From a virus, in IMG/VR virus record IMGVR_UViG_3300029286_002355, positions 32,001 to 96,000 of that record: a DNA stretch of 64,000 nt; one strand, written 5' to 3'. Under the pieces are notes generated by a model. That model did no database searches. It had not been told where the DNA came from and saw only the letters and a list, made by a program, of their open reading frames with translations. Positions 19,062-32,232 of this stretch are shown in pieces. Positions within the stretch are counted from its first letter, which is position 1, and each line of letters starts with the position of its first letter. Both the position numbers and the translations under genes were made by a program.

Positions 19062-20030
19062 CTATTTTTTCATATTTTTTTCAACATAATCTTTTTCCTC
19101 TTTACTCAGGGTATGACAAATAAACCTAAATTTTCCACCCATCACCCGTACAACATACTTCTTTTTAGATACGACATTCCTAAGATAATGCATCCATCCT
19201 TTCCCTAAAAAGTTTTTCTTGTTAAATCCCGTAACCTCCACATATGTATTTGTTTCTGGAAAAAAGAAATCGTATCTTTTTAGCCCTCTTTTCCCAAGAT
19301 GCCCATATTTTTCATTGTGGATAAAGTTTAAATTATCTTTTTTGTATTTCAAATAAAAGAATGCTTCTGTTTTAGATGCGCACCTTGCACCATCCTTAAG
19401 AACTATCTTGTTTGCCTTACTACATTTTGGACAGTGGTTCCCGTCATTTCTATGATAAACCTCTGTTTCCCATTCATGCCTACAGGTAGAACATATCCAC
19501 CATGCCACAAAATTACTTCCGGGAGATACATCGAATGGAGTACGCTTCCTATTTTTTGTGGGGTGCCATTCTTTTGCTATTTTAGGCAGTTGGGTCTTCA
19601 AACAATTACTTTTACAAACCTTATGTCCGCTACAATATGGACAGCCGTTACCGCTATTTCTATAATTAATTCCGGCTTTCCATTCATGTGTTTCACCATT
19701 AACAATATGCTCCCACCATACGGATTTGCTAGAACCCGGCAAAAAATCAAATGGGCCTCTTACATTTTTGTGTCCCCACTCTTTAGAAAGTAATGGGTTA
19801 ACAGATCCTAACGATATACACTTAGGACATTGACCATAATTAAAGAGAGTCCTGTAATATATTTTTGTTTTCCATTCATTTCCGCATTTTATACATTTCC
19901 ACCATGCTTTTCTGTCAGATCCATAACCAATTTTTGTTACATCGAGTTTTCCATTTTTTGTAGGGTGCCATTCTTTTGCCAATATTGGATTGTGTATAGC
20001 AAGGGATATCTTTTTACAATTTTTTTTCAT
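19062..20030 (-). CDS. Zinc-ribbon-repeat (DUF4379-like) protein with C-terminal PD-(D/E)xK-like nuclease; putative homing endonuclease
   Basis: Repeats LAKEWHPTKN...WWKC..C..EW, CPYCSG; C-terminal SKTEA...YDFFFP..YVEVTG. Confidence 0.75.
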   Translation of the reverse strand: MKKNCKKISLAIHNPILAKEWHPTKNGKLDVTKIGYGSDRKAWWKCIKCGNEWKTKIYYRTLFNYGQCPKCISLGSVNPLLSKEWGHKNVRGPFDFLPGSSKSVWWEHIVNGETHEWKAGINYRNSGNGCPYCSGHKVCKSNCLKTQLPKIAKEWHPTKNRKRTPFDVSPGSNFVAWWICSTCRHEWETEVYHRNDGNHCPKCSKANKIVLKDGARCASKTEAFFYLKYKKDNLNFIHNEKYGHLGKRGLKRYDFFFPETNTYVEVTGFNKKNFLGKGWMHYLRNVVSKKKYVVRVMGGKFRFICHTLSKEEKDYVEKNMKK

Positions 20031-20380: not shown

Positions 20381-21145
20381 TTATTTGTTCTTCATTATCT
20401 TTCCTAATCTTTTCACAATAATATCGTAATATTTTTGCTCTTTTTCAATTCCAATAAATCTACGATTAAGGTTGTAAGCAGCTTCTAATGTTGAGCCTGA
20501 ACCAGCACAATTATCTAAAACCAAATTTCCTTCATTGGTATAAGTTCTGATCAAATATTCCATGAGCGCAACAGGTTTTTCAGAAGGATGATTTTTGTTT
20601 TTCCCATTATTAACCACGGGGAAATTTAGTATAGAAGTAGGGTAACGATCTGTTTGTCCACCGCCCTTGATTCCCCACTTTGTTTTTCCGTAAGTCAAAG
20701 TTGCGGCCCCTTCATGATGGGTAAACGAATTAACAGGTTTATGTCCTGTTGTTTTTTGGGGATTATAAGTTGGTGGATTTCTATAAAAAACTAAAACGGA
20801 TTCATGCTTCCTCAGGGGTTGTTTTTTGGCGTTTAAAAATCCTGTTACTTTATTTTTTACCCAAATCAAGTCGTACCTAAAAATGGACATATTGCTAGCT
20901 ATTAACTTTGTTCTAAAGGGTTCTACGGCAGTAAAAACCATTGCGGCGTTACTTTTTGTTATTCTTAGATATTGTTCCCATAGCGGTTCAAAGGGTATGA
21001 TTACGTCCCATGTTTGGCGATTGGTTACAGAATAAGGCAAATCACACAAGACCATATCAATTGATTGGTCTGGAATATTTTTCATTAGTTCCAAACAATC
21101 GCCCAACCAAACTCCCCGACTAAATTTATCCGAATTGTTTTTCAT
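20381..21145 (-). CDS. DNA N6-adenine/N4-cytosine methyltransferase (beta class)
   Basis: CDLPY (motif IV), HPSEKP, VLDNCAGSGST (motif I). Confidence 0.92.
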   Translation of the reverse strand: MKNNSDKFSRGVWLGDCLELMKNIPDQSIDMVLCDLPYSVTNRQTWDVIIPFEPLWEQYLRITKSNAAMVFTAVEPFRTKLIASNMSIFRYDLIWVKNKVTGFLNAKKQPLRKHESVLVFYRNPPTYNPQKTTGHKPVNSFTHHEGAATLTYGKTKWGIKGGGQTDRYPTSILNFPVVNNGKNKNHPSEKPVALMEYLIRTYTNEGNLVLDNCAGSGSTLEAAYNLNRRFIGIEKEQKYYDIIVKRLGKIMKNK

Positions 21146-21834
21146 GGATTTTGATTAATTTTTATGACCAATTTATCACTTAAATATTTTGCCCCCAACA
21201 AGAAATCAAACTCTTCTTTATTGGTTGGTAATTCTCCGAAAACATCTTTAATAACATTTACTAAATAAAGAGGATGGCTTTGTTTATCCCATGCGTCAAT
21301 AGGATGGTTTTCGTCTCCATCTGACTCCCAGTGATCTTCTAGCCATTTATAACTACAAGCAATCCCTATTTCAACTACTTCATTTAATATCCATGATGGC
21401 AAATGATGGAGGGATAGTTTGGTTACGTTTTTATATCCTGCCAAAATAGGATTACAAAATGGTGAGTGTCTATCGTTTTTCGGTTCATGACATAACGCTA
21501 TATCCAATCGAATGTTAAAGGGGTGCATCCAAACAAAGGCGTTCCTATTTTTAACCCAATTAGCCCATGTTCCACAATTCAATTTGGGCCTTAAAGCTTT
21601 ATTACAACTATCATATCCGTTATTGCTGATATCCGAATGATAATCTAGGTTAATAATACGATCACAATGAGATTTATTTATAAATGGGAGTAGGTCGGCG
21701 TGATCATCCACAATTTTGATTGGTAGACCAGTAGCCTTAATTTGCCGCATGAATTTAAGGCATTCTTTTGCGGGTCTATCGTTCCAAAAATCTAGATCTA
21801 TGGATAGATACGTTTTCAAGGTTATCTCAAACAA
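21142..21834 (-). CDS. Hypothetical protein, UPF0489/arginase-fold-like
   Basis: LSIDLDFW, VDDHADL, NLDYHSDI. Confidence 0.5.
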   Translation of the reverse strand: MFEITLKTYLSIDLDFWNDRPAKECLKFMRQIKATGLPIKIVDDHADLLPFINKSHCDRIINLDYHSDISNNGYDSCNKALRPKLNCGTWANWVKNRNAFVWMHPFNIRLDIALCHEPKNDRHSPFCNPILAGYKNVTKLSLHHLPSWILNEVVEIGIACSYKWLEDHWESDGDENHPIDAWDKQSHPLYLVNVIKDVFGELPTNKEEFDFLLGAKYLSDKLVIKINQNP

Positions 21835-22226
21835 GTAATGGAATCTGCGACATAAGTTCCGTGAGGGGCGTTTTCGGTAAAAGGGACAGAAGCACCTTTT
21901 GTTTTATTTACATAATCCCAAAAATATGTTAGCTGGGTTAAGCTATTAGTAATGAATGGTTGTTTTTTGGGGTTAGTGGCAATACATTTTACAGTAATAT
22001 ATTCTACTCCATTATACCTGCCTAACCTGCCTATGTAATTTTTGGCATCTTTTTCACTTTTAAAAAAGAATAATTTTGATCCTTTTAGAGACGGAAACAC
22101 TTCAACATTGACCGGATAACGTATAGAATGAATATTTAGATTATCCCAATCGCTAATGGAGCGTCTATTCTTTTTAAGTAAAACTTTCCACCCCTTACAC
22201 TTATTTATTGTTTTTGATTTTTTCAT
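21822..22226 (-). CDS. Phage paralog family A, copy 2
   Basis: GWKVLL...YPVNVEVFPSLKGSKLFFF...VKCIATNP...GTYVADSITCL. Confidence 0.8.
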   Translation of the reverse strand: MKKSKTINKCKGWKVLLKKNRRSISDWDNLNIHSIRYPVNVEVFPSLKGSKLFFFKSEKDAKNYIGRLGRYNGVEYITVKCIATNPKKQPFITNSLTQLTYFWDYVNKTKGASVPFTENAPHGTYVADSITCLR

Positions 22227-22254
22227 ACTTGTCTCCTTCTCTGCAATACGAACG

Positions 22255-22497
22255 TCATTTTTCATAAGTTACTGTTCTTTTTCTTTTGGGAACAGGAGCC
22301 GAAGCTTTGGGTTCTTTACACTCGTCTTGATCTAGCGGAACCACGTAAGTATCAACTCCGCAACCGCAACCGCATGTAAAATGAATTATTTTACCTTTAA
22401 TAATTCCTCTTTTGATTCTGGAATTGAGAACTGAGTCTATCCACTTGGACTCTCTCATTTGTTTCCCGCTTAAGAAATACTTATCCGATCTTTTCAT
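22255..22497 (-). CDS. Hypothetical protein
   Basis: ORF from MKRSDK, contains CGCGCG. Confidence 0.55.
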   Translation of the reverse strand: MKRSDKYFLSGKQMRESKWIDSVLNSRIKRGIIKGKIIHFTCGCGCGVDTYVVPLDQDECKEPKASAPVPKRKRTVTYEK

Positions 22498-23485
22498 CTT
22501 CCTCCTCCACAACAACATGAAACTTATCTATGAATTTCTGTTTAAGATTAATTCCTATAGAAATCTTTTTTGCCCCAACATTCTTAAGCTCTTCCTCCAT
22601 GGTTGAGCCATTCTTGCGAAGAGAGAAGATGATTCCCTTTTCGAAAGCATAAACGGTTTTAGGTATAATGGTAAGCGCAAACTCCTTCTGCTCCTTGATA
22701 TCCTTATGATCTTGGTAAACAGAAGCAATACGGTTTTTGATTTCCGTATAAATACCATCCACAAAAGTAAAGTACGGTTCATCTTCGGGAAAATAACGAA
22801 GATATTCAGGGTGTTCATTTCCCATAATAAGATTTAGGACATTCTTGGGCGAAATATTTCCGTTCTCCCTCATGTGGGCTACGGCAACAAAAGAAGGGTT
22901 CTTTGTTTTAACTCTATGATGAGACCCATTTTCATTTTCAATTACAACCACCACTCCTTCTTGAAGCGTTGGAAAAGATTCTACCAACTTAAATAGCTCG
23001 GCAAAATCCTTACAAACGAAAATTTCTGGGCGATCAACTTCCATCATCCTTGCAACATTATTTAGCTCCGTATTGGAAAGTTCCCGATAGTTGTTGCGCT
23101 CAAGATTGTTCCTGCCACCAATAAGTGTAATTTTGTTTTCCGTATAGGGAGAAACAACCCGGTTTTCTGGCCCCGTAAGCTCGAATACAAGAGTAAATTC
23201 TTTCATTTCTAAAAGTGTAAGAAACTCCTTAAGACCTGTTTTCTTTTCAGCATCCCAAAATACTTCGGCAAAAGTTCTTCCTAGATTGGTTTGTCCCTCT
23301 GCGAAAGCCATTTTTCGAGTAGCTACGCACCACTTCTCTCCGTCAAAATAAAGCGAAAGCAGAGAGTTATGAACCAGCATATCGTTTGCAAAATAATTTT
23401 CGGTAGTAGTTTGCAAATCATAGCGTTTTGACTTACACTCTACCTTCTTAATCAATTTTATTTTGGCGAGCATAGGTTTACCCAT
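22481..23485 (-). CDS. Split RNA ligase, C-terminal gene: C-intein (to HN at 23366) + C-extein of a T4 Rnl1-like ligase
   Basis: KRYDLQTTTENYFANDMLVHN|S (intein blocks F/G), then SLLSLY, TRKMAF, FELTG, EGVVV, KTKN ligase motifs. Confidence 0.9.
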   Translation of the reverse strand: MGKPMLAKIKLIKKVECKSKRYDLQTTTENYFANDMLVHNSLLSLYFDGEKWCVATRKMAFAEGQTNLGRTFAEVFWDAEKKTGLKEFLTLLEMKEFTLVFELTGPENRVVSPYTENKITLIGGRNNLERNNYRELSNTELNNVARMMEVDRPEIFVCKDFAELFKLVESFPTLQEGVVVVIENENGSHHRVKTKNPSFVAVAHMRENGNISPKNVLNLIMGNEHPEYLRYFPEDEPYFTFVDGIYTEIKNRIASVYQDHKDIKEQKEFALTIIPKTVYAFEKGIIFSLRKNGSTMEEELKNVGAKKISIGINLKQKFIDKFHVVVEEEDEKIG

Positions 23486-23512
23486 AAAGCCCCTTTCTCA
23501 ATTGTTTGCGCT

Positions 23513-23540
23513 ATCATAACATTTTTATTTAATAAGGCAA
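23513..23540 (-). promoter_or_regulatory. Promoter for the C-intein/ligase gene
   Basis: TTGCCT-16-TATGAT with extended TG; SD gaaagggg downstream. Confidence 0.5.
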
Positions 23541-24677
23541 GATAAATCTTCTGTTAACAAAAGTTTTTCTGCCACCAACTTTTCTAGCTCTTCGTCATTG
23601 CATCTTCTAATTTCGTTTTCCCAAACATAAACCACAAAATATCCCATTTTTTCTGCCATGTTCTTTTTTTTCAAATCCCTATTCCATAGTTCTTGTGCTA
23701 ATATTTTATTACCAAACGGAAACGGCAACATATCATTATGCTTGTATTTGTCGGGATTGGCATGATAAAAGTCTCCGTTCACCTCCAACAAAATCTTGCC
23801 AATCCTAAAATCAAACTGCTTAAATTTCAAATAAAAAGAATGAGTATATTCTAGCCCCCATTTTAATAATATGTTGTTTACTCTACCCTCTATGCTCGAT
23901 ACCGTTACGTGGTGCAATCTTGACAAAATTTTGCTTTTTTCTTCATCTGATAGTTTTTCCCATCTACGCTTACATCCATCACTGAATTCATTTCTTTTCT
24001 TCGGGCAATTCTTTCCAGTATTTTTTAACAACTTCACTTTTTTCTTTTCTTTTCTTTTTCGTCTGACAAGGCCAATCGGTCCCATAATTTTTCCTTGAGG
24101 TCGCCACTCGTTTCTTTTCTATATCTCCCCATTTTTCATCGTTAAATTTCAATCGTGCTTCTGATATTTTTTCTGGATTACAAACCCTTTTTACACCATA
24201 TCTTCCCATAATTGTTGAGGTTATTTTTTCTTTTATTACTTCTATCTGAAATACATTATTTACGCCATATCTTTCTTGAACGGTTTTGTTTCTTTTGTCA
24301 TAAGCATCTGTTCCCCTACTCAACACGTTTATTTTCCCATATTTTTTTAAGCAAGTAGTTTCAAATTTTTTCTTTCGTTGTGGTAAACTGGAACTAACTT
24401 TAATACTTCTAGTCTCGAAGCCATAATATTTTAAAAGGAAAATTGTTTCTTTGAACCATAATCCAAATTCGTTTTTTATGTCTGGTAAACTTTTTTGTTT
24501 TACCACGTATTCTTCTTCTAGCTTTTCTTTGGTCGCTATAAGTGGGAAATTATATGCCAAGAAACTTGCTTTTATATCATTTTTGCCAAGATCTCCCCTG
24601 CTTTCGCACTTATATATGTGATGGCCCTTTATTTCCCCAAATGATAATTCTTTATAACAAAATGGACATTTTCTCAT
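23525..24677 (-). pseudogene. Vsr/DUF559-like homing endonuclease, frameshifted near 23990
   Basis: Two overlapping ORFs (23988-24677, 23525-24085) join as WKELPEEK/RNEFSDGCKRRWEKLSDEEK; C-part SSIEG..FDF..LLEVNGDFYHANP..RD..K..GY..VYVWE. Confidence 0.7.
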
Positions 24678-24724
24678 TTTTTATCCCCAAGACAAACATG
24701 ACCCACTCATATTTGTCGTGTATA

Positions 24725-25363
24725 TTAGTTCGATAGAAAAACAGAATCTCCTTCTTTTAATTCTTTTACTTTTCTATAGCACTTAAATTCTGGTAGCCAT
24801 ACATAATGTTCGCTTGTTAGTTTAATGGTTTTCCCGTTTTCTAGTTCTATTTCAAACCAATCGTCATTATTGTTTTTAATAGAAAACGCAAGAACATCAG
24901 CCCAAACAGTTTCCCCTGTATCGGTATCATACGCCAATATCTCTACCTTTTTTTTAGCCTCGCATATTTCTTTTATTGTTTTGTCACCGTCACGAGTTGT
25001 TATGAGCACATCTTCGGAACAACACCCATCTAGCTTGTTTTGAATCAACGCATCATTGAGACAAAGCTTCCATGTTCTAGGTTCATCAAAACTAGCTTCA
25101 CGTTGATTCCCTGAAAGCTTATCCTTTTCTTCGATCCCTTCTGCAAAATTATAAAAACGAACGAAGGACATTGCCATAACTTCCCAAGTTCCTTTGCGCA
25201 GGATTAGTCCACGGCATTCATCGCAGATTGGATTGAACTTAGGGCTATCAATTTGCGAGTAATTTAGTGTTACTCTGTCGGGATATTCTTTGACTTCAAT
25301 ATGGAATTCGTCTTGGAGTTTTTGAAGACCGTTTTTTATTAGATATTCTTGGACGTTAAGCAT
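24725..25363 (-). CDS. Split RNA ligase, N-terminal gene: Rnl1-like N-extein + 99-aa N-intein
   Basis: LNYSQ, ECRGLIL, FVRFYN, KLDG|CCSEDVLITT (Cys1 at 25022-25024), block B LTSEH, stop at 24725; SD aagga before MLNVQEY. Confidence 0.9.
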   Translation of the reverse strand: MLNVQEYLIKNGLQKLQDEFHIEVKEYPDRVTLNYSQIDSPKFNPICDECRGLILRKGTWEVMAMSFVRFYNFAEGIEEKDKLSGNQREASFDEPRTWKLCLNDALIQNKLDGCCSEDVLITTRDGDKTIKEICEAKKKVEILAYDTDTGETVWADVLAFSIKNNNDDWFEIELENGKTIKLTSEHYVWLPEFKCYRKVKELKEGDSVFLSN

Positions 25364-25370
25364 AGTATCC

Positions 25371-25571
25371 TTAAATTTCTTTCTTGCATCCTGAACAATT
25401 AGTTGACCTGATCGTGCAATAACAACCCTTATTTTTATCAAACAACTTTTTGGCCTTTTTTACAGCCGATACACTATTGCGAGCTTCAACTTCATAAGTT
25501 GCGCTATCGTTATGATCGTACCCATTATATCCTTCGTATGAATAGTCAAATTGTATTTTGTATCTTTTCAC
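25371..25571 (-). CDS. Hypothetical protein
   Basis: 66-aa ORF. Confidence 0.55.
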   Translation of the reverse strand: MKRYKIQFDYSYEGYNGYDHNDSATYEVEARNSVSAVKKAKKLFDKNKGCYCTIRSTNCSGCKKEI

Positions 25572-25590
25572 GTTGCCTTCTTAGTCTTTC

Positions 25591-25884
25591 TTACATTCTA
25601 TCTTCGGTATAGATACATGGGTTTTTACCAAGAGCATCTCTCCACCCCTTTCGCATAAGCTTGAAATGTTTCTTCTTTTGTGCCATATATTTCTTTTTGG
25701 CTTCCTCTCCGTGTCGCCATATATCTTCGATTTCTTGGGCCAACTGAGGAATTCTACCAAAACCATGCTCCTTACAAAGCAGCAATAGGTCAATAAGAAC
25801 ATTCTTTTCTCGGTAATAGCCTACAGTTTCCTTCGGCCAAACATTAATACAATCCAGATCTTCTACTTTTGGTGTTTTGTGCAT
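25591..25884 (-). CDS. Hypothetical protein
   Basis: 97-aa ORF, SD gaaagg. Confidence 0.65.
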   Translation of the reverse strand: MHKTPKVEDLDCINVWPKETVGYYREKNVLIDLLLLCKEHGFGRIPQLAQEIEDIWRHGEEAKKKYMAQKKKHFKLMRKGWRDALGKNPCIYTEDRM

Positions 25885-25899
25885 TTTCGTTCCTTTCTT

Positions 25900-26151
25900 T
25901 TATGCCACTTTCTCTCTGAGTTTTTCTATTGGTTTTACTCCTGCCATTTTTGCCACTTTCTCTTCGGCTTCTTTTTTCTCGTTATATTTGTCCATTGCTG
26001 TCTCAAATTCATCCATGCTCCACCCATTCTCTTCTCTTGTTTTCGACCATTCCACAAGTAGATTGAAAGTTTTAACCCTGTATCTGCCCCAAGCCTCGTC
26101 AAATAGACGTTTCATGGTTTCAAAATCCGCCTGAACAGGTTTCTTTTTCAT
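25900..26151 (-). CDS. Hypothetical protein
   Basis: ORF from MKKKPVQ, SD aaagga. Confidence 0.65.
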   Translation of the reverse strand: MKKKPVQADFETMKRLFDEAWGRYRVKTFNLLVEWSKTREENGWSMDEFETAMDKYNEKKEAEEKVAKMAGVKPIEKLREKVA

Positions 26152-26161
26152 ATTTATCCTT

Positions 26162-26536
26162 TCATTCCAAACAAGTGATGGAGTCAGCAACGTAAGTTCC
26201 TTCTGGTGCAAGATTTAAAAGACTGCTGATACCTGTTATTTCCCAAGAATATTTTATATCTTCTCTCATTGCGGCAACATATTTTTTCTTTTTTGGATTT
26301 TTAGCAATGCACTTCACAATTATACAATCGCTACAACTAGCCCTATCGAAACAAACAGCATCGGCATATTTTTTAAAAAAGAACAGTTTTGATCCAGTTA
26401 GTGTTGGGAACATTTCGACATTAACTGGATAGGTTATAGCGAACTCGTTTTTACCACTCCAATCGCTGATAGAACGTCTATTCTTTCTAAGTAAAACTTT
26501 CCACCCTTCGCACATCTTTGCCTTTTGTTTTTTCAT
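26162..26536 (-). CDS. Phage paralog family A, copy 3
   Basis: GWKVLL...YPVNVEMFPTLTGSKLFFF...VKCIAKNP...GTYVADSITCL. Confidence 0.8.
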   Translation of the reverse strand: MKKQKAKMCEGWKVLLRKNRRSISDWSGKNEFAITYPVNVEMFPTLTGSKLFFFKKYADAVCFDRASCSDCIIVKCIAKNPKKKKYVAAMREDIKYSWEITGISSLLNLAPEGTYVADSITCLE

Positions 26537-31953: not shown

Positions 31954-32232
31954 TTAAATCGGCACATTTTCGGAATATGCAGCACCGTTGGGAATATGCA
32001 TCCATCGTTTAACATATTTATCAGGGAAAGGCGGCAGAGTTGTAGTAGGAATTGTATCCCATTCTCTTTTTTCGTAGTTAAACTGGCCACAAAAAAATCC
32101 CGCTACATTTGCGTTTGGCGGTTTAGTTTCAAAAAATACCAAGACGGAATAAGGACTACTATTATCAATTAAAGGTGGTTTTGCCACCCAATTATCAAAC
32201 CATACTTCGTTATCTGTTTTCCCATTAATCAT
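31954..32232 (-). CDS. Hypothetical protein
   Basis: 92-aa ORF, SD aaggag. Confidence 0.6.
   Translation of the reverse strand: MINGKTDNEVWFDNWVAKPPLIDNSSPYSVLVFFETKPPNANVAGFFCGQFNYEKREWDTIPTTTLPPFPDKYVKRWMHIPNGAAYSENVPI

Follow-up and report, generated by a model that had tools for sequence, protein, structure and literature searches.

The ligase locus described here is best explained as a fractured gene, in which a split intein interrupts an Rnl1-type RNA ligase that would be rebuilt by protein trans-splicing. The locus lies in a 64,000-nucleotide stretch of viral DNA, hereafter the window (positions 32,001 to 96,000 of the IMG/VR virus record IMGVR_UViG_3300029286_002355), and the source record, from an uncultured phage, is a linear contig of 186,119 bp from lake water, estimated to be 82% complete. 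In this reading, which we consider very likely from sequence comparisons, the only Rnl1-type (T4 RnlA-like) ATP-dependent RNA ligase of the phage would be encoded by two adjacent genes on the same strand, with the break falling between Gly and Ser of nucleotidyltransferase motif I (K-L-D-G/S). An acidic N-intein of 99 amino acids (aa) and a basic C-intein of 36-40 aa would associate after translation and fold into one HINT domain, and class-1 protein trans-splicing via Cys1, the block-B Thr and His, the terminal His-Asn, and Ser+1 would produce a 407-aa ligase with a native motif I and the released intein pieces. Because each half alone would lack a complete active site, ligase activity would depend on splicing. 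A free-standing Vsr-like (EDxHD) endonuclease between the halves would once have mobilised the cassette, and would now be decaying through a one-base frameshift.

All genes in the ligase part of the window are coded on the minus strand. Gene 1 runs from an ATG at 25363, two bases past the stop of the upstream gene, to a TAA at 24727-24725 and encodes 212 aa; its start agrees with the start sites of the homologues P0002 and P0121. The first 113 aa (N-extein, 25025-25363) belong to an Rnl1-like RNA ligase and end in motif I as K110-L-D-G113, and the following 99 aa with the TAA stop (24725-25024) make up the N-intein. Gene 2 runs from an ATG at 23485 to a stop codon at 22483-22481 and encodes 334 aa, consisting of the C-intein (23366-23485) and the C-extein (22481-23365; Ser+1, 294 aa of ligase with motifs III-V and the C-terminal domain, and the stop codon). 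Counted from ATG 23485 the C-intein has 40 aa, and counted from a further in-frame Met codon at 23473 it has 36 aa. The 36-aa form is more likely because in relatives, as in the public gene call P0001 (330 aa), the C-half starts at the position that corresponds to the second Met. The order along the coding strand is then N-extein, N-intein, stop, endonuclease region, C-intein, Ser+1, and C-extein. In the whole record we found one ligase, one intein, and one endonuclease of its family. A first-pass annotation, made from the letters alone, had described gene 1 as 113 aa of Rnl1-like ligase ending in KLDG plus a 99-aa N-intein (Cys1, TxxH), and gene 2 as a C-intein of 36-40 aa with a terminal HN, after which come Ser and 294 aa of ligase. 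The coordinates and counts given above bear this description out, as do the start of the N-intein profile match at residue 114 and the Pfam match at positions 121-155 described below.

The two exteins fit together as one ligase. In PHROG 562 (T4 RnlA), profile positions 17-107 are found in gene 1 and positions 107-362 in gene 2 (expectation value E of 5e-27 for gene 2), and because the two segments abut, the break is exact. Gene 2 also matched Pfam RNA_lig_T4_1 (PF09511) with 38.3 bits, above the cut-off of 28.3. When gene 2 was searched against 5.8 billion proteins, the matches were mostly uninterrupted ligases of 380-420 aa, of which the closest uninterrupted homologue, P0002, is 77% identical and reads A-L-I-Q-N-K-L-D-G-S-L-L-S-C-Y. 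The N-extein of the window ends in A-L-I-Q-N-K-L-D-G and is about 80% identical to the N-terminus of intact P0002, this segment included, and the C-extein starts with S-L-L-S-L-Y. The predicted junction KLDG-SLLSLY therefore faces KLDG-SLLSCY in P0002, in line with the earlier proposal that splicing would rebuild motif I as KLDGSLLSLY in a 407-aa enzyme; indeed, the predicted spliced product (113 + 294 = 407 aa) matches the uninterrupted homologues over the junction. P0002 and P0019 are continuous through K-x-D-G-S, and in the alignment with T4 Rnl1 (PDB 5TT6 and 2C5U, E 3e-4) the segment G-S-L-V-S-T-Y lies opposite N-S-L-L-S-L-Y of the window. Since the alignments with T4 Rnl1 and the homologues are continuous at this point, the insertion point falls between Gly and Ser of motif I. 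The lysine predicted to be adenylylated is K110. Motifs III (F-E-L), IV (E-G-V-V), and V (R-V-K-T-K) are present in the C-extein, and none of the corresponding alignment columns (F-E-L, E-G-V-V, R-V-K-x-K) varies among 12 homologues. The polypeptide of gene 1 contains the catalytic lysine, and that of gene 2 the remaining active site. Among GenBank phages, a blastn search with the locus gave no match, and a tblastn search with gene 2 gave 12 distant Rnl1 matches, none of which has this C-intein.

The sequences between the exteins contain all the catalytic residues of a class-1 intein, namely Cys1, Thr70/His73 of block B, the terminal His-Asn, and Ser+1. The N-intein begins C-C-S-E-D, with Cys1 followed by Cys2, and its block B reads T70-S-E-H73. 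NCBIfam TIGR01445 (intein_Nterm) matched gene 1 residues 114-188 with 34.9 bits (cut-off 24.5), with Cys114 at profile position 1, and Pfam Intein_splicing was divided between the genes, with positions 7-93 at the end of gene 1 (E 1.2e-8) and positions 121-155 at the start of gene 2. The C-intein blocks F and G read S-K-R-Y-D-L-Q-T...N-Y-F-A-N-D-M-L-V-H-N, followed by Ser+1. The net charge is -7 for the N-intein and +4 for the C-intein. The nearest solved intein to both halves is NrdJ-1 (PDB 8UBS), with an E of 1.6e-6 for the N-half and 1e-3 for the C-half (residues 113-149). A tblastn search of GenBank phages with the N-intein gave no match above 35% identity; the matches, in phages of Campylobacter and Streptococcus and in one uncultured phage record, have ribonucleotide reductase genes as their annotated hosts.

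The same residues are conserved in relatives. Among 120 aligned N-inteins, Cys1 is present in 115, Thr70 in 119, and His73 in 112, and the block-B His is replaced with Asn (T-x-x-N) in 7. A conserved Cys is also found at N-intein position 21 in 88 of the 120 and at position 82 in 103. The sequence S-K-R-Y-D-(I/L)-Q-T...N-F-F-A-N-x-I-L-V-H-N hardly varies among 22 C-inteins, and the residue after it is Ser+1 in every case except a single Cys; this conserved C-intein is present in 5 metagenome proteins and 14 IMG/VR loci. It could be argued from the seven family members with Asn in block B that the intein halves serve as a non-covalent zipper which holds the ligase fragments together without splicing. 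However, the window copy retains Cys1, Thr70, His73, the terminal His-Asn, and Ser+1, and if an intein of about 135 aa stayed unspliced in motif I, where it would separate Lys-x-Asp-Gly from the next strand, the active site would probably be disrupted. We consider such a zipper very unlikely, and splicing of the two halves the better explanation.

Gene 1 was searched exhaustively with HMMER against 1.84 billion cluster representatives, which gave 2097 hits, and the best 150 were examined. Within these best 150 of 2097, 119 have an N-intein of this kind, and 110 of the 119 end no more than 8 residues past the N-intein and are thus split. The insertion is directly after K-x-D-G in 71 of the best 150; most others have it after the variant K-x-H-G, K-x-E-G, or K-T-D-E-x-R, or one or two residues further on. 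Among the same 150, an Rnl1-like N-extein is found in 26, and other N-exteins have either an OB-fold domain (PHA02142) from a different ligase-like family of phages or an AAA_33 kinase fused upstream. In two such metagenome proteins (P0137 and P0138), fusions of an AAA_33 kinase and a ligase N-part, the N-intein is inserted one residue later, after K-x-D-G-T.

A different explanation would be that a mobile element has broken the ligase gene and left two functionless halves. The endonuclease of the same cassette is already frameshifted, and RNA ligases are accessory genes in phages, both of which would suit a dead gene. On the other hand, both halves are complete open reading frames (ORFs) in which every ligase motif is invariant. 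Because the split layout and the catalytic residues persist in more than 100 divergent cluster representatives, the halves appear to be under purifying selection. The phage also retains a partner Pnkp-like gene (L080:820-1794) for a protein of 324 aa with AAA_33 kinase and PNK3P phosphatase domains, located at about 151.2-152.2 kb of the record, outside the window and about 95 kb away. With these observations, a dead ligase is highly unlikely. In T4, the pair of Pnkp and Rnl1 acts in RNA repair, and since the phage described here also encodes a Pnkp-like kinase-phosphatase, the ligase rebuilt from the two halves probably has a role in RNA (tRNA) repair, as in T4.

The first-pass annotation had named a mis-assembled cis-intein as a finding that would speak against a split gene. 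Contigs (Logan) from the lake-water metagenome runs X1, X2, and X3 were compared over 22300-25600, and were identical with 0 differences, 0 gaps, and no alternative joints, which contradicts mis-assembly. The X1 contig is 35 kb and the X2 contig 14.9 kb; X3, which is from another study, has several short contigs, one of which (record 8) covers 23517-24380, frameshift included. Runs X4 and X5 contain only small shares. As the contigs of three runs are identical, both the split layout and the frameshift belong to the consensus of the population and did not arise in a single assembly. In addition, the halves are separated by multiple stop codons in every frame, and the same architecture is found at many independent loci. 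Although the inspection covered assembled contigs only, it is extremely improbable that the true gene has a contiguous cis-intein or that the frameshift is a sequencing error.

Several points weigh against the reading of a fractured T4-like ligase that is the only one of its phage. The record itself may derive from X1 and X2, the depth of the independent X3 is only about 4-5, and the comparison was of contigs and not raw reads. The completeness of the record is an estimate (82%), so a second ligase copy is possible. Finally, the ligase scored 42 bits for TIGR02308, the T4 RnlA equivalog, whose cut-off is 242 bits. Judged by these profile scores, the gene product is a member of the PF09511 family and not a T4 RnlA equivalog, and because the score is so far below the equivalog cut-off, the ligase may act on a substrate other than that of T4 Rnl1.

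The gene between the halves consists of two overlapping ORFs in different frames, at 24677-23988 (ORF A, 229 aa) and 24085-23525 (ORF B, 186 aa), whereas relatives have one ORF of 300-380 aa. ORF A is the N-terminal, putative DNA-binding part, has the motifs CxxC...HxxxC and repeated KYGV-N-V (DUF7487), and ends at a TGA. It matched positions 1-104 of 220 of the Pfam DUF7487 profile (E 1e-10) and PHROG 12131 and 3339 ('homing endonuclease'), and it aligned to the first two thirds of the single-ORF relatives. At 23988-24002, ORF A ends ...GAA GAA AAG AAA TGA, and a one-base frameshift places the conserved continuation N-E-F-S-D-G...W-E-K-L-S-D-E-E-K in the +1 frame. The gene is a single ORF in the related loci L010, L012, L013, L016, L019, L058, L061, and L064. 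An endonuclease profile of both window ORFs and eight single-ORF relatives matched the catalytic domain of I-Bth0305I (PDB 3R3P, E 2.9e-6) and E. coli Vsr (1CW0, E 6e-3). The Vsr-like endonuclease that had been noticed between the halves at first reading is thereby confirmed at the level of profiles; its frameshift into two ORFs was absent from that description. ORF B, which has the Vsr-like (EDxHD) catalytic domain, matched TIGR00632 (vsr, E 1e-3) and PHROG 22677 (E 2.7e-18), and its catalytic core E-V-N-G-D-F-Y-H and the downstream R-D are intact. In EDxHD endonucleases the DNA-binding and catalytic parts are joined in one polypeptide, and in the window they are in different frames, so that the gene appears to be a broken member of the family.

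Because the frameshift separates the DNA-binding part from the catalytic domain, the endonuclease is most likely decaying. Decay after fixation is the usual fate of a homing endonuclease. Related fractured loci form a decay series in which the endonuclease is truncated (L007, L015 type), frameshifted elsewhere (L011), or absent (L018). In the individual loci, the endonuclease is cut to about 130 aa at L007:4687-5079, the frameshift at L011:5062-6004 is at another A-rich run, and at L018:1916-2058 only 141 bp lie between the halves.

The endonuclease might instead still be active, either because ORF A and ORF B are translated separately and work as two polypeptides, or because ribosomes shift by +1 at AAA-UGA. 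An AGGA is located 7 nt ahead of the ORF B ATG, the ORF B core E...G-D-x-x-H...D is intact with both ORFs otherwise open, and the frameshift is fixed in three samples. But this AGGA and ATG are inside the conserved K-N-Y-G codons of ORF A and could be coincidental, and no recognised shift signal is apparent. In most relatives the gene is one ORF, and the break in the frameshifted L011 is elsewhere, as if by random decay. An active endonuclease is thus possible but unlikely, and decay remains the preferred explanation for the two ORFs.

The gene 1 stop is immediately followed by an RNA hairpin (24688-24720) with an 11-bp inner stem and a 5-nt loop. This hairpin lies a short distance upstream of GGGGA, the ribosome-binding site of the endonuclease, which it does not cover. 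Folded over 101 nt, it has a z of -2.3. In related loci, hairpins are found over the ribosome-binding site or the AUG of the endonuclease, some with a TATAAATA-like loop. By analogy, the hairpin in the window may have a related function. The leader of gene 2 has no unusual RNA fold (z +0.5).

The locus belongs to a large family. Scanning IMG/VR with the C-half alignment gave 69 ligase loci, and about 17 IMG/VR contigs have the full order of N-extein, N-intein, endonuclease, C-intein, and C-extein. The same cassette is found in three more divergent hosts, a divergent ligase (L058) and two hosts without a family match (L061 and L064). A single-protein scan of IMG/VR gave one distant locus only, and a scan of metagenome contigs gave at least 8 loci, the best at 55% identity among the matches listed, and no closely related DNA allele free of the intein was among them. 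Contiguous forms also exist at the same site: a LAGLIDADG endonuclease is nested in the inteins of P0199 (748 aa) and P0261 (743 aa), and the 520-aa P0202 has a mini-intein. The splicing blocks of these three proteins are clearly homologous to those of the window, and the last 20 residues of the P0199 C-block are nearly identical.

We also built an extein tree of 117 proteins, six split alleles among them. All six split alleles are sister to an intact allele, with support of 98-100 for four of the pairs; six changes are needed, and the split alleles do not cluster. For example, the split P0009 is 89% identical to the intact P0019. Because the split alleles are scattered and each is sister to an intact allele, their sporadic distribution is the pattern expected of a mobile element. 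The NCBI name of P0019 is 'MAG: RNA ligase [Synergistaceae bacterium]', and the 182,571-bp contig that carries it may be a phage genome binned as a bacterium. Whether all these inteins form one large clade of split inteins specialised on motif I of ligase-type nucleotidyltransferases, a clade undescribed in the literature we searched, is in our judgement evenly balanced. Such a clade would include the motif variants KxDG, KxHG, KxEG, and KTDE, and its hosts would include Rnl1-like ligases, PHA02142-type OB-fold ligases, and kinase-ligase fusions.

Around the ligase locus are genes of replication and transcription, such as those for a clamp loader, a sigma factor, an exonuclease, a methyltransferase, and an HNH endonuclease. 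The last (PHROG 559) and a DNA methyltransferase with a D-L-P-Y motif are encoded next to each other just downstream of the locus at 19062-20030 and 20381-21145, respectively, both on the minus strand. On both sides of the ligase region are paralogous small proteins of 147 aa (21822-22265, minus strand) and 124 aa (26162-26536, minus strand) that share C-x-G-W-K-V-L-L-(K/R)-K-N-R-R-S-I-S-D-W, Y-P-V-N-V-E, G-S-K-L-F-F-F-K, and the tail G-T-Y-V-A-D-S-I-T-C-L; the 147-aa paralogue has no PHROG match at E 1e-5 or better. Elsewhere, at about 10-11.4 kb of the record, an endonuclease gene with NUMOD3 and TnsA-like-N domains (L079:1941-2822) is directly upstream of a stand-alone AAA_33 kinase gene (L079:1405-1944) and is another mobile nuclease of this phage. 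A group I intron at the ligase locus was considered and rejected, as an Rfam scan of 21800-26000 gave no match. A scan for promoters and terminators gave no more sites than chance would (10 against an expected 10.6), and a TTGCCT-16-TG-TATGAT site ahead of gene 2 was accordingly not counted as promoter evidence. No meaningful DNA repeats were found in the flanks of the cassette.

If splicing holds, the enzymes assembled by natural protein trans-splicing would come to include an ATP-dependent ligase of RNA repair, and the position of the cut at the catalytic lysine motif would make the enzyme activity strictly dependent on splicing. The family, with more than 100 diverged representatives, short C-halves, and mostly Ser+1, is a source of candidate orthogonal split inteins for protein engineering, and the contiguous, mini, split, and endonuclease-less forms at one site allow a direct study of how split inteins originate and how their endonucleases decay. 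Should the inteins indeed form a single motif I clade, the pool of Ser+1 split inteins with short C-halves may be orthogonal to gp41-1, NrdJ-1, and Npu DnaE, and the clade would offer a natural series in which to test the gene-breaking model of split-intein origin. Splicing could then also gate RNA-repair activity, because the active-site lysine is apart from the rest of the enzyme until splicing, and Cys1-Cys2 with the two further conserved cysteines would permit redox control. When two 'partial RNA ligase' genes are annotated as a pair in phage metagenomes, they are not necessarily pseudogenes.

Fractured genes of this layout were described by Dassa, London, Stoddard, Schueler-Furman, and Pietrokovski in 2009 for gp41, IMPDH, DnaE, NrdA, NrdJ, DNA ligase, terminase, and one unknown protein (PMC2677866), a list that contains the gp41, NrdJ, and IMPDH examples cited in the first-pass annotation. 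That annotation named no RNA ligase example, and we found none in the 2009 list or in the literature searched: full-text searches that reached only a minority of subscription papers, and not InBase, brought up nothing on inteins in RNA ligases of the Rnl1, RnlA, or ATP-dependent type. As in the genes of the 2009 study (gp41-1, gp41-8, NrdJ-1, IMPDH-1, NrdA-2, and others), a conserved phage enzyme in the window is encoded by adjacent ORFs on the same strand with a split intein, and a free-standing Vsr-like endonuclease (there also GIY-YIG) is between the halves with a hairpin ahead of it. Endonuclease-associated hairpins were reported in 15 of 16 such genes (PMC2677866). The opposite charges on the intein halves are likewise common to both, the polarity of an acidic N-half and a basic C-half having been described for NrdJ-1, IMPDH-1, and NrdA-2 (PMC2677866), and both sets have endonuclease-less variants (gp41-7 there, L018 in the RNA ligase family). 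The locus in the window differs from the listed ones in its host enzyme, an ATP-dependent RNA ligase of the Rnl1 type, in the position of its insertion within catalytic motif I (a comparison that leaves aside the insertion point of the 2009 DNA ligase locus), and in its frameshifted endonuclease. The 2009 'DNA ligase' locus resembles the Felix O1 ligase (PMC2677866).

Among solved inteins, the window copy is most like NrdJ-1 (PDB 8UBS, 9OMB), a fast natural split intein which also is of class 1, has the canonical split site and a C-half of about 36-40 aa, and has an acidic N-half and a basic C-half; however, the identity is only about 30% over the N-half, and the NrdJ-1 host is a ribonucleotide reductase. 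The endonuclease resembles I-Bth0305I, the prototype EDxHD (Vsr-like) homing endonuclease (PMC3239194; PDB 3R3P), in that an N-terminal DNA-binding region precedes the Vsr-like catalytic domain at the C-terminus. The gene for I-Bth0305I is part of a group I intron of recA, whereas the gene in the window stands by itself within a split intein, has an N-terminal region of the DUF7487 type, and has its domains parted by the frameshift. The ligase shares with T4 Rnl1 (RnlA; 2C5U, 5TT6) the PF09511 and PHROG 562 matches, the alignment of motifs I, III, IV, and V, and the partner Pnkp-like gene, but it is a distant relative (E 3e-4 to the PDB chains) and T4 RnlA is uninterrupted. Inteins are also known in RNA-repair ligases of the RtcB type, as cis-inteins in archaea and actinobacteriophages (bioRxiv 10.1101/2025.01.02.630785), but RtcB has an unrelated GTP-dependent fold and its inteins are contiguous. 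The locus is one of many such metagenome loci and would not surprise an intein specialist; the fractured-gene layout has been known since 2009, and the RNA ligase host appears to be the new addition.

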